Assembly: GCA_965202665.1 (NCBI GenBank)
Contig: OZ241841.1
Coordinates: forward strand, 2,112,001 to 2,176,000
DNA length: 64,000 nt
Direction: 5' to 3'
DNA from: Candidatus Spongiisociaceae bacterium
GTDB taxonomy: Bacteria; Actinomycetota; Acidimicrobiia; Spongiisociales; Spongiisociaceae
Part shown: positions 26,734 to 60,458 of the stretch, piece after piece
Layout: every line of letters begins with the position of its first letter
Position numbering within the stretch: the stretch's first letter is position 1
Position numbers and translations under genes: made by a program
Notes under the pieces: generated by a model
Seen by the model: the letters and a program-made list of their open reading frames with translations, nothing else
Database searches by the model: none
Told to the model about the DNA's origin: nothing

Positions 26734-26811
26734 CGCGGGGTGGAGCAGTCTGGTCAGCTCGTCGGGCTCATAACCCGAAGGTCGCAGGTTCAAATCCTGC
26801 CCCCGCTACCA
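26734..26811 (+). tRNA. Initiator tRNA-fMet (CAT)
   Basis: CGCGGGG...CTCATAA...GGTTCAAATCC...CCCCGCTACCA; unpaired C1, three G-C pairs in anticodon stem, encoded CCA; TATAAT at 26716-26721. Confidence 0.97.
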
Positions 26812-26940: not shown

Positions 26941-28266
26941 ATGGTTAAACAATACGAAATCCGCGACCCGGTGCTTTCTTTCATCGGGGTTGATTCGGGT
27001 GAGCGGCGGGTGATAGATTCCCGGCCGGTGCAACGGCTCCGCTACATTCGCCAGCTGGCCACATCGTATCTGATATACCCGGGGGCGACGCACACCCGGT
27101 TCGAACATTCGCTGGGCACGATGGAGCTGGCGGGCCGGATTTACGACGCGGTGACCGTTCCGTCGCGCTCCAACGGTTTCGTCTTCCAAGCCTTGCCCGA
27201 GCTGCGGGAAGGGGAGGAACGCTCTTATTGGAGGCGGGTGGTTCGGATGGCGGGACTATGCCACGACCTCGGCCATCTGCCGTTTTCCCACGCCGCCGAG
27301 CACGAACTGCTCCCCGAAGAATGGAGCCACGAGCGTCTCACTTACGAGATTATCCGCTCCAAAGAGATGACCGAAGTTTTGTCAAGCGGCAGGCCGCCGG
27401 TGGATTCCGAGGATGTGGCGCGGATCGCAGTGGGGCAGAAGCACTGGATCGAGAAAGCTCTGACCCCTATGGAAACTATCCTGTCCGAGATTATCGGCGG
27501 AGACGCGCTGGGGGCGGACCGGATGGATTACCTGCTACGGGATTCGTTGCACGCCGGCGTGGCCTATGGTCGCTTCGATTACCATCGCCTGATCGGAACC
27601 CTCCGGATTCTGCCCTCCTTCTCGCTGGATGAGGAAGACAAGGGACGGCCGATGTTGGGAGTGGAGTGGGGCGGGATTCAGTCGGCGGAGGCCCTGCTGA
27701 TGGCCAGGTATTTTATGTTCTCTCAAGTATATTTTCATAAGATAAGAATGATTTACGACCTTCATCTTATCGATTTCCTGAAAGATTGGCTTCCTGGTGG
27801 ACGATTTAAGACCGATATCGAATCCCATCTGAAGTTCACGGACAGCGAAATCATCGCCGCCATCCGCGAGGCCGGTTACGATGAGGGCATGGACGGGCAT
27901 AAATGGGCGCATCGCTTGGCGAATCGCAAGCACTTTCGGGTGCTCGATCCGGGCCGCCCGCAACATGCGGCTCAGAATTCGAGGATGGCGAAAGCCATCT
28001 GCCGGGCCGCGCAAGCCAAATTCGGGGCGGATTTCGCGCGGGCGGCCCATCCTCCGCCTAAAGAGAGCAAGTTGGAGTTTCCGGTTCTGATGGAGGACGA
28101 AAAAGTTCAATCGTCGCTTACCGTGTCGCAGGTGTTTGCTTCTCTTCCCGTTCCAACACCCGGTTATGTTTACGTCGATGAGAGAATATTGGATGAAGCC
28201 CGAAAATGGTTGGCGAAGCATCGCGATCACATTATTAAGGAAGCATCTCAAGGAGGAGGTGAATAA
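26941..28266 (+). CDS. HD-domain dNTP triphosphohydrolase-like protein (SAMHD1/YwfO-like)
   Basis: IRDPV, QRLRYIRQLA, YPGATHTRFEHSLG, CHDLGHLPFSH, ADRMDYLLRD, RYFMFSQVYFHK. Confidence 0.9.
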   Translation: MVKQYEIRDPVLSFIGVDSGERRVIDSRPVQRLRYIRQLATSYLIYPGATHTRFEHSLGTMELAGRIYDAVTVPSRSNGFVFQALPELREGEERSYWRRVVRMAGLCHDLGHLPFSHAAEHELLPEEWSHERLTYEIIRSKEMTEVLSSGRPPVDSEDVARIAVGQKHWIEKALTPMETILSEIIGGDALGADRMDYLLRDSLHAGVAYGRFDYHRLIGTLRILPSFSLDEEDKGRPMLGVEWGGIQSAEALLMARYFMFSQVYFHKIRMIYDLHLIDFLKDWLPGGRFKTDIESHLKFTDSEIIAAIREAGYDEGMDGHKWAHRLANRKHFRVLDPGRPQHAAQNSRMAKAICRAAQAKFGADFARAAHPPPKESKLEFPVLMEDEKVQSSLTVSQVFASLPVPTPGYVYVDERILDEARKWLAKHRDHIIKEASQGGGE

Positions 28267-29906
28267 TGGACCTTTTGCGGAAGATAGCGTTGGTTTCCGA
28301 ACTGTTGGACCGGATACGGGCCAACAACGTTTGGGCGGGCCCGGTTCACCTGCAGAAGAGCATGTTCTTCTTGCAGGAGATGCGGGGAGTCCCGCTGGAC
28401 TTCGAGTTCGTTCTGTACCGATACGGGCCGTACTCTTTTGAGTTGCAGGACGAGATCGAATATATCCGAGGGTCGGGGTTTCTGAAGTGGTTTTTTCACG
28501 ACTCCCCCGGCTATGCCACCGGCCTAGAAACTACCGAGGCCAGTCGCAATATCCGCGACAAACTTCCCAAGCTTATGGATAAGTACGAGGATGATTTGGC
28601 CTTTGTGTCCGAAAATATCGGTCCTATGAGGTCCATGCAACTAGAGCGGGTATCGACTTCCTTTTATTACATGGTGAAGGGCTTGGAAGGCGACGAGGAT
28701 ATCGCCCGCGAGGTTTGCAAGGTAAAACCGCATATTGATTACTCGGACGCGGCAGAGGCTGTGCAACAGGTCCGCCAGTTCGCCGAGCAGTCAGGTTGGC
28801 GCCGTATGGACAGCGTAACTTGGCCAATCGAACCTCATACTTTAGCTAAGCACGACCTCCTTCGTAGGTATCTCGGAGATTGGTTTCCTATTATGTACAA
28901 GCGCAACAAGAGAATTATATATCTCGATGCTTTTGCTGGTCCTGGTGTTTACGCGGGCGGTGAGCCAGGGTCGCCTTTGATTGCACTGGAAACACTTATT
29001 ACGCATAAGTCATTTCCAAAGATGAGTGAAACAGAATTTGGGTTTGTATTTATAGAAAAGGATAAATCGAAGTGTCAAAGGCTGGAGCAAGAAATAGAAA
29101 CCTTTTGGCTAAAGCAGGGAATAGATAAGCCCTCGAATATAGAAATCGATGTGATAAACGATGAATTTATGAATATTGCTCAGGATGTTCTTAATAAAAT
29201 TGAACCTAAAGGTGCAACACTAGCACCTGCTTTTGCTTTTATTGATCCTTTTGGTTGGTCCGATATTAGATTCGATCTAATGATGCAAATTGTTTCCTTT
29301 GATAAGTGGGAAATTTTATTTACCTTTATGGTTGAGCATATTTCTCGCTTCTTAAATAAACCAAATACACAAAAATCTTTACAAGGTTTTTTTGGCACAG
29401 ATAAATATAGAGATTTTGTTTCTCTATCTGGTGATAAAAGGATAGAATCTTTAAGAGATCTATTTGTTGATCAGTTAAGAGAAAAAGGTTCTTTCTCGCA
29501 TGTAACACCATTTGAAATGGTTAGCAATAGAGGTAAGACCGAGTGTTTTTTGATTCACGGCACACGTCATATAAAAGGGCTTCAAGTAATGAAGGATGCA
29601 ATGTGGAAGTTGGATCCGACCGGTAACTATCAATTCGAGGCAAGGTGGAAGGGACAGGAAGTTCTTTTTGGCCCTAATTATATCAAAGATCTCAAAAAAG
29701 AGTTTATTGAAGAATTCAAAGGAAGAGAGGTATCAATTTCAGAAATAGAGAATTACGTATTAACAGATACTCTCTATACTAAAAACCATGTAGTACCAAC
29801 TTTGAAAGAAATGGAAAAAGAGATAGAAAATAAAGGAATAATATTAGCAACAAACCGTCAAAGAAAGAGAACATATCCGTCTGGCACTAAAATTACATTC
29901 TTCTGA
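28266..29906 (+). CDS. Fusion: YwgA/Panacea(DUF4065)-like N-domain (aa 1-180) + TcmP three-Cys-motif partner domain
   Basis: N-part HLQKSMFFLQ...FVLYRYGPYSFEL; from Met at 28806 a paralog of the 31088 protein (HTLAKHDLLRRYL, YLDAFAGPG, GSPLIA, FIDPFG); TAATG overlap with HD gene. Confidence 0.8.
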   Translation: MDLLRKIALVSELLDRIRANNVWAGPVHLQKSMFFLQEMRGVPLDFEFVLYRYGPYSFELQDEIEYIRGSGFLKWFFHDSPGYATGLETTEASRNIRDKLPKLMDKYEDDLAFVSENIGPMRSMQLERVSTSFYYMVKGLEGDEDIAREVCKVKPHIDYSDAAEAVQQVRQFAEQSGWRRMDSVTWPIEPHTLAKHDLLRRYLGDWFPIMYKRNKRIIYLDAFAGPGVYAGGEPGSPLIALETLITHKSFPKMSETEFGFVFIEKDKSKCQRLEQEIETFWLKQGIDKPSNIEIDVINDEFMNIAQDVLNKIEPKGATLAPAFAFIDPFGWSDIRFDLMMQIVSFDKWEILFTFMVEHISRFLNKPNTQKSLQGFFGTDKYRDFVSLSGDKRIESLRDLFVDQLREKGSFSHVTPFEMVSNRGKTECFLIHGTRHIKGLQVMKDAMWKLDPTGNYQFEARWKGQEVLFGPNYIKDLKKEFIEEFKGREVSISEIENYVLTDTLYTKNHVVPTLKEMEKEIENKGIILATNRQRKRTYPSGTKITFF

Positions 29907-29914
29907 ATAGGTGG

Positions 29915-29960
29915 TTATAATGTGGGAAGCCATTCCAAGTAATGCCATCTAAGGTTCGGC
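29915..29960 (-). pseudogene. 3'-terminal relic of a DUF5131 gene
   Basis: Encodes RTLDGITWNGFP, identical to the C-terminus of the 32235-32942 protein; DNA nearly identical. Confidence 0.8.
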
Positions 29961-29961
29961 T

Positions 29962-30339
29962 TTGGTCAGCGAGGGGGAGCGGCCGGTTGGGATCATCCAG
30001 AGTTACCGCATCGGGGACGACCCTGAATATTTGGATGACCGGTGGATGGTGGGGGCGCCGCCCGACGAGGTCAGCTTGGACTATCTGATCGGGGTACCGG
30101 ACGCGGTGGGGCGGGGGCTGGGTTCGGAGATGATACGGCGGTTCGCAGCCAGCCTGTGGGAGCGCTACCCGCGGGCACCGTCGGCGATCGTGGCGGTGCT
30201 GGCCGACAACCCGGCTTCCTGGCGCGCTTTGGAGAAAGCCGGGTTCGCCCGGATCTGGTCGGGCCCGGCCCGCTCCGACTACGGAGCCGACGAACTCACC
30301 CACATCTACCGTCTTTCCCGCCCGTCGCCGGTTGCCTGA
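29962..30339 (+). pseudogene. 5'-truncated GNAT acetyltransferase (AAC(6')-like C-terminal half)
   Basis: PVGIIQSY, LDYLIG...GRGLGS, NPASWRALEKAGF; N-terminal part missing, abuts the DUF5131 relic. Confidence 0.7.
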
Positions 30340-30370
30340 CTCGGCTCACCGCCGACCCGCCCTTTGCTTA

Positions 30371-30429
30371 CGACAAAAGGTCGGAAAACAACCGACAAAT
30401 TGTCGGTTTATTTTGAAAGGTAGTATAGT
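30371..30429 (+). promoter_or_regulatory. Tandem palindromic operator overlapping a putative promoter
   Basis: CGAC-N5-GTCG at 30371 and 30393; AACCGACAA-A-TTGTCGGTT 30390-30408; TTGTCG-N18-TATAGT. Confidence 0.5.
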
Positions 30430-30442
30430 GGAATATAGGGAA

Positions 30443-30480
30443 GGCTGGGGGCGGTGTTTTACGGGTTGCCGCCCCCAGCC
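30443..30480. terminator. Perfect 12-bp GC hairpin
   Basis: ggctgggggcgg / ccgcccccagcc. Confidence 0.6.
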
Positions 30481-30524
30481 CGGTTGTTGCCTTTTGCCTG
30501 CCTGGAATCAGGCTAGGGCAACAT

Positions 30525-30602
30525 CTAGCGGACGCCGGAGATCAGAAACCTGACCGACTCCAGATCGACATCGTTCAAGTTTGCCTTGAAGGTGGCGGTC
30601 AT
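30525..30602 (-). CDS. Putative 25-aa small protein MTATFKANLNDVDLESVRFLISGVR
   Basis: Upstream consensus promoter and purine-rich leader AGGGAAAGGGA; downstream hairpins. Confidence 0.4.
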   Translation of the reverse strand: MTATFKANLNDVDLESVRFLISGVR

Positions 30603-30620
30603 AATCTTATCCCTTTCCCT

Positions 30621-30649
30621 ATTATATATAAGTAATACATTTGAGGCAA
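30621..30649 (-). promoter_or_regulatory. Sigma70-type promoter
   Basis: TTGCCT-N17-TATAAT on minus strand. Confidence 0.65.
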
Positions 30650-30665
30650 ATCGCCTGTGGCAACC

Positions 30666-30984
30666 CTACTCGGCCGGGTGCGACAAAACGGGGACAACAA
30701 GATGTTTGATGGCGGTGGTGTCCGAGATGGTTCCTGGCCGGGAGTTTGGGGCAGCGTTATATGGTCGTCCGTTATCGGCAGGAAGGGCGGGCTGGGGTTT
30801 CTCGCAGGGGGCTGGGGTTGGTGTCCACTTCCAGCAGACCTCCGCCCGCCGCGGCCGCTAGCCAATCGGTCATCGTTCCGAACGAGGTGAGCACCGGCCC
30901 GCGCAATCGGTGCTCGGAACGCCTGCGTCGTCACTTTTGCACACCGCCAGGCTCCAGCCGCCCGCCGGGAGTAAATTCCCCTCC
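30666..30984 (-). pseudogene. Internally deleted, frameshifted copy of the enolase-superfamily gene at 32975-34150
   Basis: 30666-~30862 aligns by eye to 32975-~33173 and ~30865-30984 to ~34035-34148; about 0.85 kb missing. Confidence 0.85.
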
Positions 30985-31053
30985 TCGGCCAAATCCCCCT
31001 TGGGATGGAATCAGGTAGGAAGCAGGCGAGCCGCCCAGATGGCTAGCCAGGAT

Positions 31054-31081
31054 TTGCCTTTACCATTTAGTGTGGTATAAT
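31054..31081 (+). promoter_or_regulatory. Extended -10 promoter, probably leaderless, for stand-alone tcmP
   Basis: TTGCCT 31054-31059; TGGTATAAT 31073-31081; ATG at 31088 with no SD. Confidence 0.6.
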
Positions 31082-31087
31082 GAGCGT

Positions 31088-32224
31088 ATGGACAGTGTAA
31101 CTTGGCCAATTAAACCTCATACCAAAGCTAAGCATGAGCTCCTTCGTAGGTATCTCGGAGCTTGGTTTCCTATTATGTACGAGGGCAACGAGAGAATTAT
31201 ATATCTTGATGCTTTTGCTGGTCCTGGTGTTTACACGGGCGATGAGCCAGGGTCGCCTTTGATTGCACTGGAAACACTTGTTAATCATAGTTCATTTTCA
31301 AAGATGGGTGGAACAGAATTCTTATTTGCATTTATAGAAAAGGATAAATTAAAGTGTCAAAGGCTAGAGCAAGAAATAGAAACCTTTTGGCAAAAACAAG
31401 GAAAAAATAAGACCTCGAACATCAAAATTGCGGTGCTGAACGACGAATTTGAGAATATTGCTCAGGATGTTCTTAATATCCTTGAATCTGACAATGCAAT
31501 TTTAGCACCTACCTTTGCTTTTGTTGATCCTTTTGGCTGGTCCGGTATGACTTTAGAATTGATGACGAAATTCCTTTCTTTCAGAAAATGTGAAATTCTA
31601 GTTAACTTTATGGTTGAAGATATTTCCCGGTTCCTAGATAAAGAAAATACACAAAAATCTTTGCTAGACTGTTTTGGTACAGATAGATATAGAGATTTTG
31701 TTTCTCTATCTGGCGATGAAAGGATAGAATCTTTAAGAGATTTATTTGTTGATCAGTTAAGAGAAAAAGGTTCCTTCAAATACGTAACGCCATTTAAAAT
31801 GGTTAATAATAGAGGTAAGACCAAGTATTTTTTGATTCACGGCACTCGTAGTATAACAGGGCTTCGAGCAATGAAGGATGCAATGTGGAAGTTGGATCCG
31901 ACCGGTAACTATCAATTCGAGGCAAAGTGGAGGGGAAGGCAAGTGCTTTTTGGTTCTGATATTATTCAAGATCTCAAAAAAGCGATTTTTGAAAAATTTA
32001 AAGGAAGAGAGGTATTTATTTCTGATATAGAGGAATTCGTATTAACGGATACTCCTTATACTATAAAGCATGTCCGACAACATTTGAAAGAGATGGAAGA
32101 TGAAGGAATAATATCAGTGCCCGGTAGATCTGCACATTTATCGGTACAGGCGACTTTGGAAGGAATGGAAGATCAAAAAAGGAAAACATATCCGCCTGGT
32201 ACCAAAATTGATTTCTCTGAATAG
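31088..32224 (+). CDS. tcmP: Three-Cys-motif partner protein TcmP (methyltransferase-like + wHTH)
   Basis: HTKAKHELLRRYLGAW, YLDAFAGPG, GSPLIA, FVDPFG, YFLIHGTRS...MKDAMWKLDP; convergent with DUF5131. Confidence 0.85.
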   Translation: MDSVTWPIKPHTKAKHELLRRYLGAWFPIMYEGNERIIYLDAFAGPGVYTGDEPGSPLIALETLVNHSSFSKMGGTEFLFAFIEKDKLKCQRLEQEIETFWQKQGKNKTSNIKIAVLNDEFENIAQDVLNILESDNAILAPTFAFVDPFGWSGMTLELMTKFLSFRKCEILVNFMVEDISRFLDKENTQKSLLDCFGTDRYRDFVSLSGDERIESLRDLFVDQLREKGSFKYVTPFKMVNNRGKTKYFLIHGTRSITGLRAMKDAMWKLDPTGNYQFEAKWRGRQVLFGSDIIQDLKKAIFEKFKGREVFISDIEEFVLTDTPYTIKHVRQHLKEMEDEGIISVPGRSAHLSVQATLEGMEDQKRKTYPPGTKIDFSE

Positions 32225-32234
32225 GTGATGATAT

Positions 32235-32942
32235 TTAATAGTTTGGAAAACCATTCCAAGTAATGCCATCTAGGGTTCGGCCACCTGCTTTGGGGGTGTT
32301 ACCGCCCCATTGTTTGAAGAAAAATGGGATTTCTGCTTTTTGAGAAAGGTCTCGGAGATTACGTACCCAATCAATCTCTATGGGCCGGTGGCCTGGGCCG
32401 GACTCGCCACCTGCTATTACCCATTGGATATTGTTTAGGTCGAGAGAGGGGAGGGGCCCTAGCAGAGGTTCGCAGGAAAGAAACCTTATACAGGCGTTTA
32501 TCATACGTAAGTAGTTCGCTCGAAAGGTGTATTGATCGTTTTCTATACTTGTTCCCATCCATATATGCGGAGGTAGTTGCGTGCCATTTAGATGTTTTGC
32601 CGCTCTTTGAGGACGCTTGGTTAAAACCTGAAAAGTGTGCTGTGATGCCCTTGCCATCGTATCAAATACTCCGTCAATGAAGTCGTCCGGCACCTCGGGA
32701 TGGAAAAGATCGCTCATAGAGTTTACGAATACAAGTCGAGGGCGCATCCAGCGGAGCGGTTCCCCGATTTTGTCCCAGTGGAGCGTGACGCGGAAGCCGT
32801 TGATATAGCGTTTGTTGCCCATTGCCTGCAGACGGGCGGCCAGCCTCTCCGCGTAGCAGTTATCGCACCCAGGCGAGACGGAGTCGCACCCGGTTACGGG
32901 GTTCCAAGTTTCCTCGGTCCATTCGATATTTGACTTGCCCAT
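32235..32942 (-). CDS. DUF5131 / phage Gp37-Gp68 family three-Cys (radical-SAM-like) protein
   Basis: SNIEWTEETWNPVTGCDSVSPGCDNCYAE, FVNSMSDLFH, QVLTKRP, FLSCEPLLG, GGESG, FFFKQWGG. Confidence 0.92.
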   Translation of the reverse strand: MGKSNIEWTEETWNPVTGCDSVSPGCDNCYAERLAARLQAMGNKRYINGFRVTLHWDKIGEPLRWMRPRLVFVNSMSDLFHPEVPDDFIDGVFDTMARASQHTFQVLTKRPQRAAKHLNGTQLPPHIWMGTSIENDQYTFRANYLRMINACIRFLSCEPLLGPLPSLDLNNIQWVIAGGESGPGHRPIEIDWVRNLRDLSQKAEIPFFFKQWGGNTPKAGGRTLDGITWNGFPNY

Positions 32943-32974
32943 AGGTTTCCCTTCTTTCGGCTTTCTCAGCAAGC

Positions 32975-34150
32975 CTACTCAGCCGGGTGTGACAAAACGG
33001 GGATGCCGAGATGTTTGACGGCGACGGTGTCCGGGGTGGTTCCTAGGCCGGGGGTTTGGGGTAGATTCATTTGGCCCTTCTTTATTGTTGGGAAGGGGCG
33101 GGCTAGGGCTTCTCGCAGGGGGTTGGGGTTGGCGTCTATTTCCAGCAGGCCGTCGCCGCCTGTTGCGGCTAGCAGGTGGGCGGAGGCCAGCAACCCTATT
33201 CCGCCGCCCAGGTAGTGGGGGTAGAACCGTTTGCCTGCGGCCAAAATGCGGCGGGCCAGCGGCAGGCCCCCTGAAAAGCCGCCCCATTTGGTTATGTCCG
33301 GCTGGATGATATCCAGCGCGCCGGTTTCCAAAGCGGCCGCAAACTCCGCTTCGCCCCGCAGGTTCTCGCCTCCCGCCAAAGGGAGGGGCGACTCCTCCGC
33401 CAGCCGCCGCCAGTCCTCCGGGGGGCTGTCGGCCGGGATGGGCTCCTCCAGCCAGGCGACGCCGAACCCGTCCAACCGGTTGCTCATCCGGGCCGCCTCC
33501 TCCGCCGGCCACGCCCCGTTGGCGTCCGCCGCTATCACCGCCTCCGGCCCCAAACCTTCCCGCAACTGCCGCAGATTGGCCTCATCAACCTCCCAGCCGA
33601 AACCCACCTTCAACTTGAACGCCCCGAACCCCCCGGCCCGCCGCGCCTCCTCCGCCAAAGCCAGCGGCTCCTCCGGCCCCAGGCCGCTGGCGTAGCCTTC
33701 CACCGACCCCTCGCCCGCGCCGCCCAGGAACTTCCACAACGGTACCCCCGCCCGGCGCGCCGCCGCGTCCCACAGCGCGATGTCCACTCCGGCGATGGCC
33801 TGCGCCAGCGGCCCGGGCTCCCCCGACTGCACCGCCAACAGCCGGGCCCGCTCCGTCAAATGCGCAAACGCCTCCCGCGGCCCGGCCCATTCCCGCCCGG
33901 CCGTCAAAGGCCCCAGGAAAGATTCGATCAACCGGGCCCGGTGCTCGGCCCCCACCGCCGGAAAGTTGCACCACGCCTCCCCGAACCCCCGCACTCCGTC
34001 CTCATCCTCCACGCACACCGCCACCGCCGGCCGGTCGGTCATCGTTCCGAACGAGGTGCGCACCGGCCGCGCAATCGGCGCCCGGAACACCTGCGCCGTC
34101 ACTTTGCGCACCGCCAGGCCCCCGCCGCCGGGGGTAAAGTTCCCCTCCAT
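32975..34150 (-). CDS. Mandelate racemase/muconate lactonizing (enolase superfamily) enzyme
   Basis: GFGEAW, AGVDIALWD, FKLKVG, ADAN, WLEEP, GGEN, QPDITKWGG, YPH; start could alternatively be a GTG near 34111. Confidence 0.9.
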   Translation of the reverse strand: MEGNFTPGGGGLAVRKVTAQVFRAPIARPVRTSFGTMTDRPAVAVCVEDEDGVRGFGEAWCNFPAVGAEHRARLIESFLGPLTAGREWAGPREAFAHLTERARLLAVQSGEPGPLAQAIAGVDIALWDAAARRAGVPLWKFLGGAGEGSVEGYASGLGPEEPLALAEEARRAGGFGAFKLKVGFGWEVDEANLRQLREGLGPEAVIAADANGAWPAEEAARMSNRLDGFGVAWLEEPIPADSPPEDWRRLAEESPLPLAGGENLRGEAEFAAALETGALDIIQPDITKWGGFSGGLPLARRILAAGKRFYPHYLGGGIGLLASAHLLAATGGDGLLEIDANPNPLREALARPFPTIKKGQMNLPQTPGLGTTPDTVAVKHLGIPVLSHPAE

Positions 34151-36398
34151 GGAAACCCAACATACCAACCTCCCGCCCTCCCAGGGCGAACCGGAATTCC
34201 CGGGGGTGATCGGCCCCGACTTCCGCACCTCCACCCCCTGGTGGCCGCAACCTGAAAACGACGCCCGCGGCAAACCGGACATTCTGCTGGTGGTGTTGGA
34301 CGATGTGGGCTTCGCCGGACTGGGCTGCTACGGGGCGGAAATCGACACCCCGGTCATAGACGGCCTGGCCGAACAGGGCCTGCGCTTCAACGATTTCAAC
34401 GTCACCCCGCTCTGCTCGCCCACCCGGGCCTGCCTGCTCACCGGACGCAACCATCACAGCGTGGGAATGGCCTACCTGTCCAACGTGGACTCCGGCTTCC
34501 CCGGCTACCGGGGGCGGGTAACCGAATCGGCCGCCACCCTGGCCGAAGTGCTGCAGCACGCCGGATACGCCACTTTGGCCATCGGCAAATGGCATCTGGC
34601 CCCGCTGGAGGAAACCACCGCCGCCGGCCCCTACGATCAGTGGCCGCTGGGCCGGGGCTTCGGGCGCTACTACGGGTTCTTGGACGCCCTCACCGACCAT
34701 TTTTACCCGGACGTGGTGGAAGACAATCACCGAGTGGACCCGCCGGGCCGCCCCGAAGAAGGCTACCACCTCACCGAAGACCTCATCGACCGCGCCATCT
34801 CCTACATCCGGGATCAGGTTTCGGTCAAACCGGAGCAGCCCATCTTCACCTACATCGCCTTCGGGACCGCCCACTGCCCCCACCAGGCCCCCCAAAAATA
34901 CTTGGACAAATACCGGGGACGCTACCGGGAAGGGTGGGACGTGATTCGCCGCCGCCGCTTCGAACGTCAGAAGCAGATGGGGATCATCCCCCCCGACGCC
35001 CGCTTGGCCCCCCTCAACCCGGGCGTTCAAGAATGGGCGGACCTGACCGCCGACCAGCAACGGCTGTTCGCCCGTTTCCAGGAGGCCTACGCGGCCATGC
35101 TGGACCACACCGACGCCCAAATGGGGCGGCTGGTCGATTTCCTCCGCTCCATCGGGCGGATGGACGACACCATCGCGGTGGTGCTGTCCGACAACGGGGC
35201 CAGCCAGGAAGGGGGTCCGGACGGGGGAGCGGACATCGTCACCTACGAGGAGGACCGGTTCTGCAGCGTGGAATTCAACTTGGAGCGGTTCGACTCCATC
35301 GGCGGCCCCCATTCGCAGACCAACATTCCCTGGGGATGGGCGCAGGCGGCCAACACCCCTTTGCGCTGGTACAAGCAGAACACGTACGCCGGGGGGGTGC
35401 GCACCCCCCTGGTCATCGCCTGGCCGCGGGGGATAACCGACCCGGGGGCGGTCCGTTCCCGGTTCGTGCACGCCATCGACATCGCCCCCACCCTGCTGGA
35501 TCTGGCCGGGGTGGAACCGCAGCCCTCCTACAACGGGGTGGAGCAGATGCCCTACCACGGGGACACCATCCGCCCCGTTTTGGAAAACCCGGACGCCCCC
35601 CCGTCCCGGGAAAGCCAGTATTTTGAGATGATCGGCCATCGGGCCATCTGGCGCAACGGATGGAAAGCCCTCACCCGCCACCGCCGCAATGAGCCGTTCG
35701 CCGACGACCCGTGGGAGCTGTACCACATCGACTCCGACTTCTCCGAATGCGAAGACCTGGCCGGCCGCCACCCCGGCCGCCTGCGGGAAATGGCCGAATT
35801 GTGGGAGGAGGAGGCGGCCAAATATTCGGTGTTGCCGCTGGACGACCGCTACCTGGCGGTGCGGGCCTCCTCTTTCCAAACCCCCGGTTCGCCCCGGGCC
35901 CGCGACTCTTTCACCTACCTGGGCGGGTCGTCCCGCGTCCCCGGCGGGGTAACCCCCCTGATTTTCAACCGTTCCTTCTCCATCACCGCCCGCATCGCCC
36001 CCGCCCGCCCCGCCGAAGAGGGGGTTTTGACGGCGACCGGGGATGTGAGCGGCGGCTACGCCCTGTACGTCAAAGATGCCCGGCTCACATTTGAATACCA
36101 CTATTTGGGGCGCCGCCAAATCCTCGCCTCCCCGGTCCCGGTTCCCCCCGGAACCCGCCGTTTGGCTTTCCGGTTCGAGCGCGACGGCGACTTCCAAGGA
36201 AAAGGCTTTTTGGAAGCCGACGACCGGGTTTTGGCCGAGGGGGACATGGACGACATGGCCCGGGGGATGATCTCGTGGGGGTCGTTGAGCGTGGGCGCCG
36301 ACACCCTGTCCCCGGCCGGTTCCGGCTATGCGGGGGAGTTCCCGTTCACCGGCCAAGTGGAGCGGGTGGACTTCCAACTGCAGCCGCCCCCCGCCTGA
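34149..36398 (+). CDS. Arylsulfatase (formylglycine type, Cys)
   Basis: VLDDVG, CSPTRACLLTGRNHH, GKWHL, SDNGASQEGG, ANTPLRWYK, WELY. Confidence 0.93.
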   Translation: METQHTNLPPSQGEPEFPGVIGPDFRTSTPWWPQPENDARGKPDILLVVLDDVGFAGLGCYGAEIDTPVIDGLAEQGLRFNDFNVTPLCSPTRACLLTGRNHHSVGMAYLSNVDSGFPGYRGRVTESAATLAEVLQHAGYATLAIGKWHLAPLEETTAAGPYDQWPLGRGFGRYYGFLDALTDHFYPDVVEDNHRVDPPGRPEEGYHLTEDLIDRAISYIRDQVSVKPEQPIFTYIAFGTAHCPHQAPQKYLDKYRGRYREGWDVIRRRRFERQKQMGIIPPDARLAPLNPGVQEWADLTADQQRLFARFQEAYAAMLDHTDAQMGRLVDFLRSIGRMDDTIAVVLSDNGASQEGGPDGGADIVTYEEDRFCSVEFNLERFDSIGGPHSQTNIPWGWAQAANTPLRWYKQNTYAGGVRTPLVIAWPRGITDPGAVRSRFVHAIDIAPTLLDLAGVEPQPSYNGVEQMPYHGDTIRPVLENPDAPPSRESQYFEMIGHRAIWRNGWKALTRHRRNEPFADDPWELYHIDSDFSECEDLAGRHPGRLREMAELWEEEAAKYSVLPLDDRYLAVRASSFQTPGSPRARDSFTYLGGSSRVPGGVTPLIFNRSFSITARIAPARPAEEGVLTATGDVSGGYALYVKDARLTFEYHYLGRRQILASPVPVPPGTRRLAFRFERDGDFQGKGFLEADDRVLAEGDMDDMARGMISWGSLSVGADTLSPAGSGYAGEFPFTGQVERVDFQLQPPPA

Positions 36399-55871: not shown

Positions 55872-58800
55872 ATGACGACAAGCGAAACCGCTCAGGGCGC
55901 AATGATGGAAGGCGTCCATCGCCCTATGCCCGCGCTTGCCCCCAAACTGTTTTGGTTCCTCGTCGCCGTTGCCGTCGGTGCCACTCTCCTTCTAGCCGCC
56001 CCCCCTTCCCCAGCCCAGGAAACCACCCCCGAGACCGCGCCCGCAACTCCCACGATCACCCTAAGCGTAAACCAGACCAGCGTGACGGAGAGCAGTAGCA
56101 ATATTTCTATTTCCGTAACAGCGACGGCGAGCGAGGCGGTTTCATCCCCAACAACGGTAATGGTTGAAATAGGTAGAAACGATGATTCTGCGATGCGAGG
56201 AACAGATTATGCTTATGTAGCACCATTTCACATTATTATTGCGTCAGGGGGTATGACGGGAACGAGCAGTTTCAATTTGGCCAGTACCGACGACAATGTA
56301 GCGGGAGAGGGATCAGAGACCATCACGGTTTCCGGCACTGTAGCCGGTTTCACGGTTAACGGCACCTCCATCACTCTTGCGGATGCCGACACTGCGGTCA
56401 CCCTTAGCGTCGATTCAAGCAGAGCGGCTGAGAGCAGTGGTGATATTCCAATGACCGTGAAGGCTACCGTGGCCGTGGCTTTGTCATCAAATTTGGATAT
56501 AACGGTAAGTGTGGGAAGTAATCGTGATACGGCGGTGAGCGGGACAGATTATAAGGAGATAGGCGATGTTGTTATAACACTACTAGAAGGTCAAACGGAA
56601 ATCTCAACAATACTTAATCTGGCTGATACGGATGATAATATAGCAGGAGAAGGATCTGAATTTCTTACGATTACAGGTAGTAGTAGCGATTCTGATTTCA
56701 TCTTTGGTAGTGCTTCTTTCATTTTAACTGATGCGGATTCTCTGCCATCCGGTATTACATTAACGGCGGATACGAACAGTAGAATATCGGGTTTGCAACA
56801 GAACATAGAAGAAGGTAATGGGACAGTCACCGTTACCGTTACGGCTTCTTTCCCTGCTAACTACTCCACCGTTTTAGCTTATGATGTCAAAATTCGTATT
56901 ACAGGAGGTAGTTCGAGTGATAGTGCTTCTCCCGGAGCAGACTATAGATTGCCTGCTGGGTATGTTACTATTAAGGCTGGAAGCACTAGTTCGGTTGATA
57001 CTGCTTTTACTCTGACTGTAATAGATGACAACTATGCAGGTGAAGGCGATGAAATCCTAACCTTGTCTGGTTCCCACGCGACATTTACCGTTACGAATAC
57101 TACTTTGACTATCAAAGATAATGATGAAAAATCAACTACAATAAATTTGAGCGTTACGGGAAATGGAGTTGAAGGCGAATCAAAGAAAATAACTGTTACC
57201 GGTTCTTTCCCAGCCGGTTCCGCGGTTCTAGTGTCAAATACTTCTGTAAGCATTACTTTTGCTGGCACTGCTGATTCTAGAGGGGATTTTATAACAATAC
57301 TTCCGAAAACTCTAAACATCGCTAGTGGACAATCCAGCAGTTCAGTATCTTTCAATTTAACCGCAAAGGAAGATACTGTGGTTGAGGGTGCTGAGATCAT
57401 AAATGTTACTGGAACCGCTACTGATTTCTCCATTAACGGATCGAAGATTACGATTCTTGATAATGATCTCGTTTTAAGTATAGATACTGATGCTAATACT
57501 GCTGGAAATCAGAATACGATTGATGAAGATAGCGGTACTGCTACTGTAATGATTACTGCTAAATTCCTTGGTTCAGGTACTTTGGCTAAAAGCACAGCGG
57601 TATCTATTACAGTAGGAAAGGATAGCGATTCTGCTACTAAAGGCTCAACCAAAGATTATACTATAACGAGTTCCTTACCTGCTATAACTATTCCGGCAGG
57701 GAGTTCGCAAGTCTCGGCTACTTTTACATTTAGCATTAATAACGACACAGAACACGAGAAAGATGAAACTATAACTATTGTCGGCGGTGCTACAGGCTTT
57801 GTTATAGGCGATGTAGAGATGAATATACGCGATAATGACATTGGATTAAGTATTTCTCCCGAGTCTACATATGAGTTTGCCCAAAATGTAGAGTTTGAAG
57901 TAACAGCTGAACTTCCGTACGGTACAGCACCCGCTGGTGGAATCACTATTGGAGTTGTAATAGGCAAAAGTAGCGATTCGGCGACCACCAATTATTATAA
58001 GGTTGTAGGTGATGATTTTACGCTCACTATTCCACACACGAAAGCAAAAGGTTCTATTAGATTTAGGTTGAATTTAACGGAGGACGATACTATCATAGGG
58101 CCGGAAAAGATTTCTGTATATGCTAAATTCCAGGACTCTGATACCATAAATTCCAGTAAGTATGGTATCGATGAAACCTATATTCGAATAGTAAACTATA
58201 CAAGAATTCCCATATCTCTTTCTATTAGAGGTAGAGGTACAGGAAGCCTAACAGAAGTGGATGAAGGTAGTGATAATCGTATGTGGCTACAGATGAGAGT
58301 TAATGGAACACCATCTGTACCACATCGGGTACCTTTATCATATCGAGGCTCAGCTACATATAGGAATAGTAGCTCATCTGTCCGAGATCCTTTGGAGGAT
58401 TTCACAACTGTTGAACCAATACTGTGGTTAGCTCGATTTTCTTCTATTTCTACCATCGAATTTAACCTGAATGATGATGACCTAGCAGAGGGGCCAGAGG
58501 AATTTTCTGTACGGGCTATTTTTGGTTCTTATTTTTTTATTAGTAATACTATAAGAATTCTAGATAATGACGTTGCGCCTGATACCGTTTCTTTGAGCGT
58601 GGATTTGGACAAGGATACTGAAGGAAATCAGGATATAATTGGAGAGGGGGATGCCACCGTTGAGGTGAAGGTTACGGCCAGCCTGCCGACCGGGTCCAAC
58701 GCCTTCGGGTCGAATACCACCATCACCGTGATGGTGGAAGGGAAAGGAACCATCGGCAAAGCCGAGGCTACTGATTTCACTACAGTGGACAATTTTGATG

Positions 58801-60458
58801 TGATAATCCCGGCGGGGGAGGAAACCGGGTCGGGGACCTTCAACTTAACAATTACCGATGACAAGGTGGTGGATGTTACTCCGGAAACCATTACCGTGTC
58901 TGGTAGTACAACTCGTTCCGGATTGTCGGTCACCGGGGATACCATCACTATTAATTCCGATAACGACGTTGTCAGTGCGATCGCATTGAGCGTGGATACT
59001 GACACCGCAACGACAAACAAAGAGACTACAATCAACGAAGATAGTGATGAAAACAAAATCGAAATAACCGCTTCTTTAGGGGAGTTTAGTTTTGAAGGTT
59101 CATCTACTACTGTTGGCGTTACAATAGCAAGTGGAACTGCAACGATAAAATCGACGGATAACTCGGAATACGACTTTGCTGTGGACAGCAGTTCGCTTAA
59201 TATAACTATACCTGCTGGTACATCAAGCGGTTCAACTACATTTGATATTGTTACTAATAATGATCGTAAACTGGAAACGGTTACTTCAGGCTCCGGGGAG
59301 ACTATATTGATATCAGGTACTCTATCTGCCAATCCTGGTTTCAGCGTTACGGGAGCTACCATTGAAATTATTGACAATGAAGTGGCGGACTTGTTACCTG
59401 GTAGATGTAATGGAACTTATGTAACCAATACCGCACTATCCGATTTGGTCAAAGATTGCAAGATACTGATTGGTCTGAGGAATGCTTGGAGCCCTAATCT
59501 GTCTGACAGTCACCCTCTCAGAACTTGGGGAAATGGTGATAATACGGCCATCACAAGTTGGAGCGGTGTCACCATTTCCAATAACAGAGTAGGCGGGTTG
59601 GCTTTAGCAGGCAGTAGCACAAATGGATTTATAGAGGGTACAATCCCTATTAATTTATGGAAAATAAGTAAGCTGACTAATATCGATTTTTCTAATAATA
59701 ATTTGAGCGGAGAGATTCCCGTTCCCATTACTAAGTTACGTGGCCTTACCGCTTTAGATTTGTCTAATAATAGTTTAACTGGAGAAATTCCTGTTCGGTT
59801 TAGGATTTTGAGTAATCTTCGAACGTTAGATCTTTCCGGTAATATGTTGACAGGATCTATTCCTAGCCATCTTGGGGCTTTGACCAATCTCACTAGCCTG
59901 AAAATATCTAATAATCTGCTGTCCGGATCGATTCCTAATCGTATAGCTTCTCTGGTTAAGACATCGAATCAAGGTTTGAAGACCTTTTTCTTTTGCGATA
60001 ATAATCTTGAAGGGACGTGGCATACAAAACTTCAAAGAATAACATCGGATCTTAAGATGTCGGATTATGTCAACGATATTGACGTATGTCGTAGGTCTAT
60101 TGACTTAACCTTCGATAATCCGAGTGCTACTACCATACAAATAGGTGAGGGCAGTGGAACCGTAACAGTGACAGTTAAGGCTACCTTACATACATATAAA
60201 ACTACTCCGCCCAACGAGGATATCACAGTGAAAATAACCGTGGCAGGAGATTCGGCAACATCACCAGGCGATTTTACTGTGGATAAAACGGAGTTCAACG
60301 TGACAATAGAGAAAGACCAAATCAACAAAACGGCTACCTTTAGAATTACACTTGTAGATGATAATAGTGTTGAAGGGACTGAGAAGGTAAGTATATCTGG
60401 TGAATCTGATGGTTATGCGGTGAATGACACAGAGTTAGAGGTGACGGATAATGACTAA
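55872..60458 (+). CDS. Giant secreted protein with Calx-beta-like repeats and a plant-type LRR domain
   Basis: Signal peptide ending SPA-QE; about ten modules with DY...DD..EG.ETITV; LRRs LxxLDLSxNxLxGxIP at ~59.6-60.0 kb. Confidence 0.85.
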   Translation: MTTSETAQGAMMEGVHRPMPALAPKLFWFLVAVAVGATLLLAAPPSPAQETTPETAPATPTITLSVNQTSVTESSSNISISVTATASEAVSSPTTVMVEIGRNDDSAMRGTDYAYVAPFHIIIASGGMTGTSSFNLASTDDNVAGEGSETITVSGTVAGFTVNGTSITLADADTAVTLSVDSSRAAESSGDIPMTVKATVAVALSSNLDITVSVGSNRDTAVSGTDYKEIGDVVITLLEGQTEISTILNLADTDDNIAGEGSEFLTITGSSSDSDFIFGSASFILTDADSLPSGITLTADTNSRISGLQQNIEEGNGTVTVTVTASFPANYSTVLAYDVKIRITGGSSSDSASPGADYRLPAGYVTIKAGSTSSVDTAFTLTVIDDNYAGEGDEILTLSGSHATFTVTNTTLTIKDNDEKSTTINLSVTGNGVEGESKKITVTGSFPAGSAVLVSNTSVSITFAGTADSRGDFITILPKTLNIASGQSSSSVSFNLTAKEDTVVEGAEIINVTGTATDFSINGSKITILDNDLVLSIDTDANTAGNQNTIDEDSGTATVMITAKFLGSGTLAKSTAVSITVGKDSDSATKGSTKDYTITSSLPAITIPAGSSQVSATFTFSINNDTEHEKDETITIVGGATGFVIGDVEMNIRDNDIGLSISPESTYEFAQNVEFEVTAELPYGTAPAGGITIGVVIGKSSDSATTNYYKVVGDDFTLTIPHTKAKGSIRFRLNLTEDDTIIGPEKISVYAKFQDSDTINSSKYGIDETYIRIVNYTRIPISLSIRGRGTGSLTEVDEGSDNRMWLQMRVNGTPSVPHRVPLSYRGSATYRNSSSSVRDPLEDFTTVEPILWLARFSSISTIEFNLNDDDLAEGPEEFSVRAIFGSYFFISNTIRILDNDVAPDTVSLSVDLDKDTEGNQDIIGEGDATVEVKVTASLPTGSNAFGSNTTITVMVEGKGTIGKAEATDFTTVDNFDVIIPAGEETGSGTFNLTITDDKVVDVTPETITVSGSTTRSGLSVTGDTITINSDNDVVSAIALSVDTDTATTNKETTINEDSDENKIEITASLGEFSFEGSSTTVGVTIASGTATIKSTDNSEYDFAVDSSSLNITIPAGTSSGSTTFDIVTNNDRKLETVTSGSGETILISGTLSANPGFSVTGATIEIIDNEVADLLPGRCNGTYVTNTALSDLVKDCKILIGLRNAWSPNLSDSHPLRTWGNGDNTAITSWSGVTISNNRVGGLALAGSSTNGFIEGTIPINLWKISKLTNIDFSNNNLSGEIPVPITKLRGLTALDLSNNSLTGEIPVRFRILSNLRTLDLSGNMLTGSIPSHLGALTNLTSLKISNNLLSGSIPNRIASLVKTSNQGLKTFFFCDNNLEGTWHTKLQRITSDLKMSDYVNDIDVCRRSIDLTFDNPSATTIQIGEGSGTVTVTVKATLHTYKTTPPNEDITVKITVAGDSATSPGDFTVDKTEFNVTIEKDQINKTATFRITLVDDNSVEGTEKVSISGESDGYAVNDTELEVTDND

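Follow-up and report, generated by a model that had tools for sequence, protein, structure and literature searches.

The question raised by this locus is whether the genes of a low-GC island in the 64,000-nucleotide stretch analysed here (contig OZ241841.1, positions 2,112,001 to 2,176,000, hereafter the window) make up a single defence system or separate elements that have come to lie together. The genes in question, from a Candidatus Spongiisociaceae genome of 2.77 Mb and 64% GC held in a single contig, encode an HD-domain protein, a small partner domain fused in frame to a TcmP protein, a second and free TcmP, and a DUF5131 protein. An earlier note on this DNA had proposed one four-gene system in which the fused TcmP could act as a sensor or guard. 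Our analysis suggests instead, as a reasonably probable reading, that the locus holds two separate mobile modules, a toxin-antitoxin (TA)-like cassette of the HD gene and its partner and a module of TcmP and DUF5131, and that an accident joined one copy of the latter to the partner. The coordinates of all features are collected in Table 1.

Both profile comparison and residue conservation assigned the HD protein to the SAMHD1/EF1143 type, in agreement with the resemblance to SAMHD1 noted earlier. As had also been noted, the HD open reading frame (ORF, 441 aa) follows a tRNA-Met gene and overlaps a 546-aa ORF (28266-29906) via TAATG. Profile matches were obtained to Aquifex O67745 (2HEK, E 3e-84 over 4-424), EF1143 (3e-43) and SAMHD1 (about 1e-35), and H56, H108, D109, D193, E120 and H130 are invariant in 47/47 members of the HD family. 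E120 and H130 align to Glu122 and His129 of EF1143 when a 24-residue tag offset is allowed for; EF1143 is described as a dGTP-activated pool enzyme with a Glu-His catalytic dyad (PMC3190883). The sequence thus places the HD protein among SAMHD1/EF1143-type enzymes, with no catalytic residue missing, and dNTP (deoxynucleoside triphosphate) hydrolysis is predicted. The HD protein falls outside the model for anti-phage dGTPases (NF041026), with 13.8 bits against a cut-off of 400. In one public run (X4), a contig of depth 13 carries a one-base insertion in the HD gene at window position 28099, and the HD gene is split in 10/75 other loci, some perhaps through assembly errors.

The first 180 residues of the 546-aa ORF carry the pattern HLQK..F..YGP. 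A match to the C-terminal half of DarG covers residues 7-140 and is shared by 58/59 members of the partner family, and a structural model (pLDDT 95) superimposes on the DarG C-terminus (7YK3) with TM 0.71-0.75 at 16-19% identity. This was the sole strong fold match, with Z 17.5 vs 7.3 for the next chain. The C-terminal domain of DarG blocks DarT through binding (PMC11481870), DUF4065/Panacea is homologous to this domain (PMC13621843), and a GP(V) motif has been described for Panacea (PMC8832971). In the partner family, G54-P55 is near-invariant on strand 54-56, at the place of the Panacea GP(V) beta-2 motif. Pfam SocA_Panacea (PF13274) gave no match for the fused N-domain and matched 2/59 relatives at E 0.023, below its gathering score. 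In the ESM Atlas, unnamed clusters came first and a 13%-Panacea cluster followed at 0.90; no solved Panacea structure turned up in the fold searches, a result compatible with membership of the Panacea family. The only PADLOC matches of the partner, to DarG and PDC-M19A, were partial, and Pfam missed it. DarTG itself was rejected as an assignment, since the match is limited to DarG 169-305 at 32 bits vs 250 and no DarT was present among the scanned ORFs. The N-domain is thus predicted, from the model, to have an antitoxin fold of the DarG C-terminal/Panacea superfamily; the Panacea-type character claimed earlier was retained at the level of predicted fold and not at that of the Pfam score.

The conservation of the HD-partner arrangement was examined in the best 80 of 87 HD loci, five of which stop at a contig edge, leaving 75 evaluable. 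The partner lies directly 3' of the HD gene as a free ORF in 75/75 of these loci (one cut by a contig end, one frameshifted); its start overlaps the HD stop in 60/75 and lies within 30 nt of it in 13 more (73/75 in total). No third gene family was found in more than four loci, a count that rests on heuristic gene calls, and the arrangement corresponds to the two-gene locus (gap below 100 nt) by which PanAT systems are defined. Hosts include Acidobacteriota, Thermoleophilia, Deltaproteobacteria, Chloroflexota, Planctomycetota and methanogens, with Conexibacter arvalis (L091) and Geodermatophilus (L089) as cultured examples. Distances among the HD proteins are correlated with those among their partners (Mantel rho 0.56, 63 pairs), as is expected from co-transfer alone, and the GC content of the cassette is below that of its flanks in 48/50 loci. 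Within the family the pair occurs in 5/24 genomes, and the partner in 0/300 other genomes of the class. When the search was reversed in a 400-genome sample of the phylum, the partner profile matched 15 places, ten in long macrodomain proteins (DarG-like, by inspection) and five in free ORFs, four of which have an HD gene upstream. The HD gene and its partner are a tight mobile pair. Restriction-modification (RM) genes were the nearest neighbour in 10/129 cases vs 2/125 for control genes (p 0.034, a class picked after the matches had been viewed and with two PrmC-like matches left out), and the context lends modest support to a defence role.

Analysis of these features suggests that the HD gene and its partner likely form a type II TA defence pair in toxin-first order, as a prediction. 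In the mechanism that we favour by a small degree, the partner would bind and silence the HD dNTPase, as the DarG C-terminal domain does DarT and PanA its toxins; phage infection would release the enzyme, either because the host is shut off or because a phage protein attacks the partner; and the freed enzyme would drain dNTPs until phage DNA synthesis stops. Every step of this mechanism is drawn from homology, and a prediction of the HD-partner complex (score 0.00, mark 0.32) was used neither for nor against it. Alternatively, the HD protein might be a nucleotide-pool sanitiser or regulator like EF1143, with the winged-helix partner as its activator or as a transcriptional regulator rather than an antitoxin, which we regard as unlikely. 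D9, D26, Q31 and R34 are conserved in the HD family and align to a putative allosteric site, positions that we take to be those of the SAMHD1 allosteric site, and partner residues 1-113 resemble PadR/MarR winged helices (Z 6-7). Most neighbours of the cassette are ordinary genes, no partner match was found in a phage collection with one query, and the closest characterised relative, EF1143, is dGTP-activated (PMC3190883). Against a pool enzyme stand the antitoxin domain as the sole strong fold match and a patchy spread over phyla and domains, low GC content, tRNA and RM neighbours and tandem partners, all of which suit conflict genes.

The remainder of the locus belongs to a second module. Residues 190-448 of the fusion pass the TcmP model TIGR04474 with 198 bits and the free copy with 205 bits, against a cut-off of 53, so that the 546-aa ORF consists of the partner domain and a complete TcmP, as the earlier note had stated. 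The SAM (S-adenosylmethionine)-binding DxFAGPG and DPFG motifs are conserved in the TcmP copies, and the TcmP model (pLDDT 91) shows a class I methyltransferase fold closest to the adenine methyltransferase RlmJ (E 5e-7). The free TcmP most likely starts at ATG 31088; it is 69% identical to the fused copy (dN/dS between the copies 0.47). Free TcmP relatives are 76-79% identical, with a near-identical N-terminus. The promoter-like site 6 nt before its ATG suggests that the free gene is leaderless; a search for sites of the type TTGCCT-16-TG-TATAAT found 12 vs 6.8 in shuffled sequence. DUF5131, on the minus strand, is convergent with the free TcmP, and these two genes, whose presence near the fusion had been reported before, match the PADLOC defence candidate PDC-M30. 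The adjacency of intact genes that defines PDC-M30 was found for the free copy, and the fused copy has only a 44-nt remnant of DUF5131. PADLOC candidates of the PDC type are put forward for future study (preprint 10.1101/2024.01.29.577857), and DUF5131 is placed among the radical SAM subgroups (PMC9477430). A third, unrelated TcmP-DUF5131 operon lies elsewhere in the same genome (C1:129965-132443 of G000), beside recA and with an MT-A70-like methylase.

Contigs from public sequencing runs, labelled as sponge or marine metagenomes, were used to examine whether the fusion is real. In five runs (X1, X3, X4, X5 and X7), single contigs bridge the junction at position 28806 and extend at least 31 letters to each side. 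Those of X1 and X3 do not differ from the window, that of X4 differs at 50 positions over 2.2 kb and that of X5 at 53, and no stop or indel is present among the differences from 28640 to the junction region. In a further run, X12, two contigs cover the stretch and the junction is not bridged. X1 is possibly the source sample, and the other four bridging runs each belong to a different study. A chimeric assembly of two strains might be suspected because duplicated segments of 81% identity break short-read contigs elsewhere in the locus; since single contigs in all five runs cross the junction and carry different strain alleles, this explanation was rejected as almost certainly wrong.

The fusion, bridged by contigs of five runs, is limited to one lineage. 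When residues 1-180 were scored against proteins of 300-956 aa, 1/501 candidates carried the fusion, namely the window's own cluster of seven sequences at 90% identity; the fusion is confined to this one protein cluster among 5.8 billion. Among proteins of 99-315 aa, ten free partners of 183-193 aa were found, two of them 98% and 95% identical to the fused domain. These two end in SGWRPHAKSAVPQVA where the fusion reads SGWRRMDSVTW, so that the fused domain has lost the last ~10 residues and the stop of a free gene of ~185-190 aa. The partner profile matched 487 clusters at E up to 1e-30 among 1.84 billion representatives, and the best 150 of these were all free proteins of 166-263 aa. Among the 120 listed of 1137 TcmP matches, only the fusion and one protein lacking the partner domain exceed 420 aa. 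No fused form was found in the 40 relatives searched, and when metagenome contigs were scanned with the partner, none of the 59 pattern matches proved to be a relative.

Comparison with the sister species (G001) indicated how the fusion may have formed. In G001, a GNAT acetyltransferase gene starts inside the tail of the partner gene, one base out of frame (CAA CGT C ATG), and in the window the TcmP ATG occupies this spot in frame (CGC CGT ATG). Identity between the two TcmP copies (81%) begins exactly at CGTATG and continues into the 44 nt of DUF5131 3' end, and GC content falls from 54% to 36% at the junction. In the main strain of X5 the fusion has a depth of ~500 and the free TcmP and DUF5131 a depth of 1-4, with a joint 30532-33030 that skips them; the 201 nt by which the DUF5131 remnant is longer in X5 and X7 suggest that it is eroding. 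These sequence features make it likely that the fusion arose through a local recombination accident. The history that we consider highly probable is that a TcmP-DUF5131 unit inserted into the GNAT gene starting within the partner's 3' tail, and that loss of intervening DNA then would have removed the last ~10 codons of the partner, the TcmP promoter and the 5' part of the GNAT gene, leaving the TcmP ATG in frame with the partner. As the free TcmP appears leaderless, read-through from the partner would now express the captured copy. The two halves probably keep working independently, which may be why the frame has been kept. Four gene remnants lie between the TcmP copies: the DUF5131 3' end, the GNAT gene, an OsmC-like gene and an enolase copy.

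Several observations weigh against the reading of an anti-phage TA cassette joined to a separate module by accident. Toxicity, binding and phage defence are themselves predictions by analogy. PADLOC matches of any kind were not enriched among cassette neighbours (23/129 vs 15/125 at E 1e-15, p 0.22), and the control genes for the neighbour counts were drawn from one family only. The median net charge of the partner is -2, so that it is not acidic in the way of an ssDNA mimic. Disrupted genes are ten times as frequent for HD as for the partner (10 to 1), an excess that is not significant for their lengths (p 0.12). On an archaeal plasmid (L144:2123-5543), a 28%-identical partner homolog lies 3' of a gene for a 924-aa 'DNA polymerase elongation subunit' rather than of an HD gene. 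The fused TcmP is intact, differing at 3/77 conserved columns as does the free copy, and the strain variants listed for it are six synonymous and four non-synonymous (p 0.009 vs site counts; the list is incomplete, with 18 rows missing, and ten X7 variants at 29650-29786, most of which map like the paralog, were excluded). TcmP modules also adjoin the cassette as separate genes in two other loci, L111 (1/80, with a broader profile), where all genes are frameshifted, and one in G455 (1/4).

The intact fused TcmP and its synonymous lean suggest that the fusion is not obviously decaying. An explanation of the fusion as a neutral or decaying scar, with the partner impaired by its tail or TcmP made from its own ATG and the locus heading to loss, could draw on the four neighbouring remnants, on the insertion at 28099 in the X4 contig and on a weak AGG 10 nt 5' of the internal ATG. 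Because the fused ORF is free of stops and indels wherever four runs cover it, and because its TcmP part shows a synonymous excess, we consider such a scar very improbable.

In the guard arrangement, the fused TcmP domain would serve as a built-in sensor or decoy: when a phage inhibits TcmP-DUF5131, its inhibitor would strike this domain too, and the partner would release the dNTPase. An in-frame fusion in strains of four or more studies other than that of the possible source, a TcmP part that is intact and varies synonymously, the erosion of its own DUF5131 (as expected of a decoy), the cassettes beside TcmP modules in two other loci and the diversification of partner copies in the arrays of relatives are all consistent with this arrangement. 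Against it, the fusion occurs in one cluster and in 0/75 loci, no long form was present in the best 150 partner matches, and the other long protein among the listed TcmP matches lacks the partner domain. The genomes of three relatives with the cassette (G001, G004 and G020) are devoid of TIGR04474 matches, recent recombination has left its marks at the junction, and the main X5 strain lacks the local module to be guarded, a comparison made for the local TcmP2 and DUF5131 and not for the distant third operon. The TcmP modules next to cassettes as separate genes fit shared residence in islands, the search for them being limited to the 65/75 loci with at least 3 kb downstream, and leave the guard role with a low probability. 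The four-gene system proposed earlier was therefore not retained, although a fusion of accidental origin could still be a recent innovation. In a related proposal, the 3' end of the partner gene would be an evolvable sensor slot that has just captured TcmP as a decoy, so that phage attack on the module triggers dNTP depletion, which seems quite unlikely. It is equally doubtful that relatives use the same slot by diversifying the partner in tandem arrays or by placing new defence genes at the start codon that its tail contains.

Relatives carry different cargo at the same tRNA-Met site, including DUF4062, an RT_UG33-type reverse transcriptase of the DRT group, DUF6119, MNT-HEPN and an AbiL-like ATPase. 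In G001, which has no TcmP, tRNA-Met and HD are followed by a first partner copy, DUF4062, another partner copy, GNAT, OsmC and enolase. The first ~17 codons of a GNAT gene that starts inside the first partner copy are there joined in frame to the low-GC DUF4062 gene (L021:10608-11765, minus strand), which suggests that the slot in the partner tail captured different cargo in G001. In G004 and G009 (L023:7580-9095 and L024:7508-12042), the site holds either a PLD-SNF2 helicase together with a reverse transcriptase of the RT_UG33 type that seems to be split in two (399 + 196 aa), or else the DUF6119, MNT-HEPN and AbiL-like genes. Arrays of two to three partner copies were found in L021-L024 and L097. 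In L022:6024-8016 (G001:C1:416023-418015), three tandem, ~90% identical, divergent partner copies follow the HD gene, with YGP replaced by YRARCWP, YRANLWP and YRADLWP; codons 61-90 hold 11/24 of the amino-acid differences among the three copies and only two synonymous-only codons, a pattern that looks like diversifying selection on a binding surface. Behind this array (L022:8600-12000, minus strand) are four or five tandem copies of a gene of ~150-260 aa with the motif '...EQYWxERIRRMTQMSQD...', one copy of which gave no match in Pfam. In G455 (L160:777-7574), hsdR is followed by a distant HD-partner pair, a 263 nt gap and a TcmP with a spore-photoproduct-lyase-like radical SAM gene in place of DUF5131.

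Table 1. Features of the low-GC island and its flanks (window coordinates)
Feature	Position	Strand	Remarks
tRNA-Met(CAT)	26734..26811	+	Head of defence-cargo hotspot; upstream of cassette in G001, G004 and G009 too
HD-domain SAMHD1/EF1143-type predicted dNTP triphosphohydrolase, 441 aa	26941..28266	+	H56, H108, D109, D193 ligands; E120/H130 dyad
Partner domain, 180 aa, DarG-C-terminal/Panacea-superfamily winged-helix predicted fold	28266..28805	+	
TcmP copy 1, in-frame fused, class I SAM-methyltransferase fold + GMT-wHTH, GC 36%	28806..29906	+	
DUF5131 3' end remnant, 44 nt	29917..29960	-	201 nt longer in X5 and X7
GNAT acetyltransferase gene without first 58 codons (counterpart in G001 181 aa)	29962..30339	+	
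OsmC-like gene remnant (G001 copy intact)	30536..30617	-	
Second enolase-superfamily gene copy, internally deleted, pieces 79-83% identical	30660..30984	-	
Promoter-like TTGCCT-16-TG-TATAAT, 6 nt 5' of TcmP2 ATG	31054..31081	+	Likely leaderless transcript
TcmP copy 2, free, 378 aa, PADLOC PDC-M30A	31088..32224	+	
DUF5131 three-Cys radical-SAM-superfamily protein, 235 aa, PADLOC PDC-M30B/M41B	32235..32942	-	PF07505 E 2e-96
Intact mandelate-racemase/enolase gene, right flank of island	32975..34282	-	

Elsewhere in the window, a UPF0182 gene sits 5' of the tRNA-Met gene, gene content of this kind being indicative of an actinobacterium. A second low-GC island (55872-60458 to ~63500) contains another Calx-beta-like gene besides that of a 1528-aa secreted-looking protein whose repeats are of the leucine-rich and Calx-beta types. 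That the GNAT piece confers resistance was rejected, the best AAC(6') score being 21 bits vs a cut-off of 400 and the gene truncated.

In conclusion, the two-gene cassette rather than the fusion is the useful result; clustered at 50% identity, the partner family numbers 487 clusters or more (E up to 1e-30) across bacteria and archaea. If it defends against phage, the HD-partner pair would closely parallel SAMHD1 in prokaryotes, with an antitoxin to control it. The fusion shows clearly, in a natural case, how an antitoxin can gain a domain where start codons overlap, and such gains are what integrated decoys could be made from; decoy capture, if true, would be a guard system caught at birth.

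The HD enzyme shares the H...HD...D metal site and the Glu-His dyad with SAMHD1, Enterococcus EF1143 (2O6I, 3IRH) and Aquifex O67745 (2HEK), and differs from them in its dedicated downstream partner and its patchy, mobile spread, its activity being predicted. With the anti-phage dGTPases (NF041026, PADLOC dGTPase) it has the HD superfamily in common, but it belongs to another subfamily, and nucleotide depletion is its proposed effect; to our knowledge, the nucleotide-depleting defences described so far use the dGTPase branch. The YwfO-YwgA pair of Bacillus subtilis presumably has the same layout, namely an HD gene and, after it, a small gene whose product is predicted to fold in a similar way. 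Compared with DarTG (DarG C-terminal domain, 7YK3), the cassette is alike in partner fold and toxin-first order, but lacks the macrodomain and DarT, has an HD hydrolase as the cognate protein and a partner that is not acidic. Both TcmP copies and DUF5131 match the PADLOC candidates PDC-M30/PDC-M41 (TIGR04474 + PF07505) strongly, while the gene order here is convergent and one TcmP, joined to a domain of antitoxin fold, no longer has a DUF5131 of its own.

The earlier note knew of no description of this architecture. Our literature search, which did not extend to bioRxiv supplements and most subscription papers, likewise found no account of an HD-partner-TcmP fusion, no test of an HD-Panacea pair and no Pfam-invisible branch, and the available part of PMC13519002 does not mention antitoxin, DarG or SocA. 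The HD-PanA type of pair has, however, already been predicted in print: Dataset S1 of Kurata et al. 2022 (PMC8832971) contains, as a prediction only, PanAT cluster T34 (pT33), an 'HD domain-containing protein' (CDD YdhJ) followed by PanA in toxin-first order, with five rows in the TA sheet and two in the not-TA-like sheet, all from Clostridia. T34 resembles the cassette described here in being a two-gene arrangement of an HD gene and then a Panacea-superfamily gene, with a gap of -17 to +23 nt, a likeness in gene layout that is based on the listing in that dataset. It differs in that T34 rows pass the DUF4065 HMM (hidden Markov model), whereas the partner family here spans many phyla and archaea with the 2/59 sub-threshold matches given above, and in having no TcmP. 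Relative to T34, the present locus adds a far larger, Pfam-invisible branch of the HD-PanA-type pair, of which we found no earlier description, together with the fusion to TcmP.

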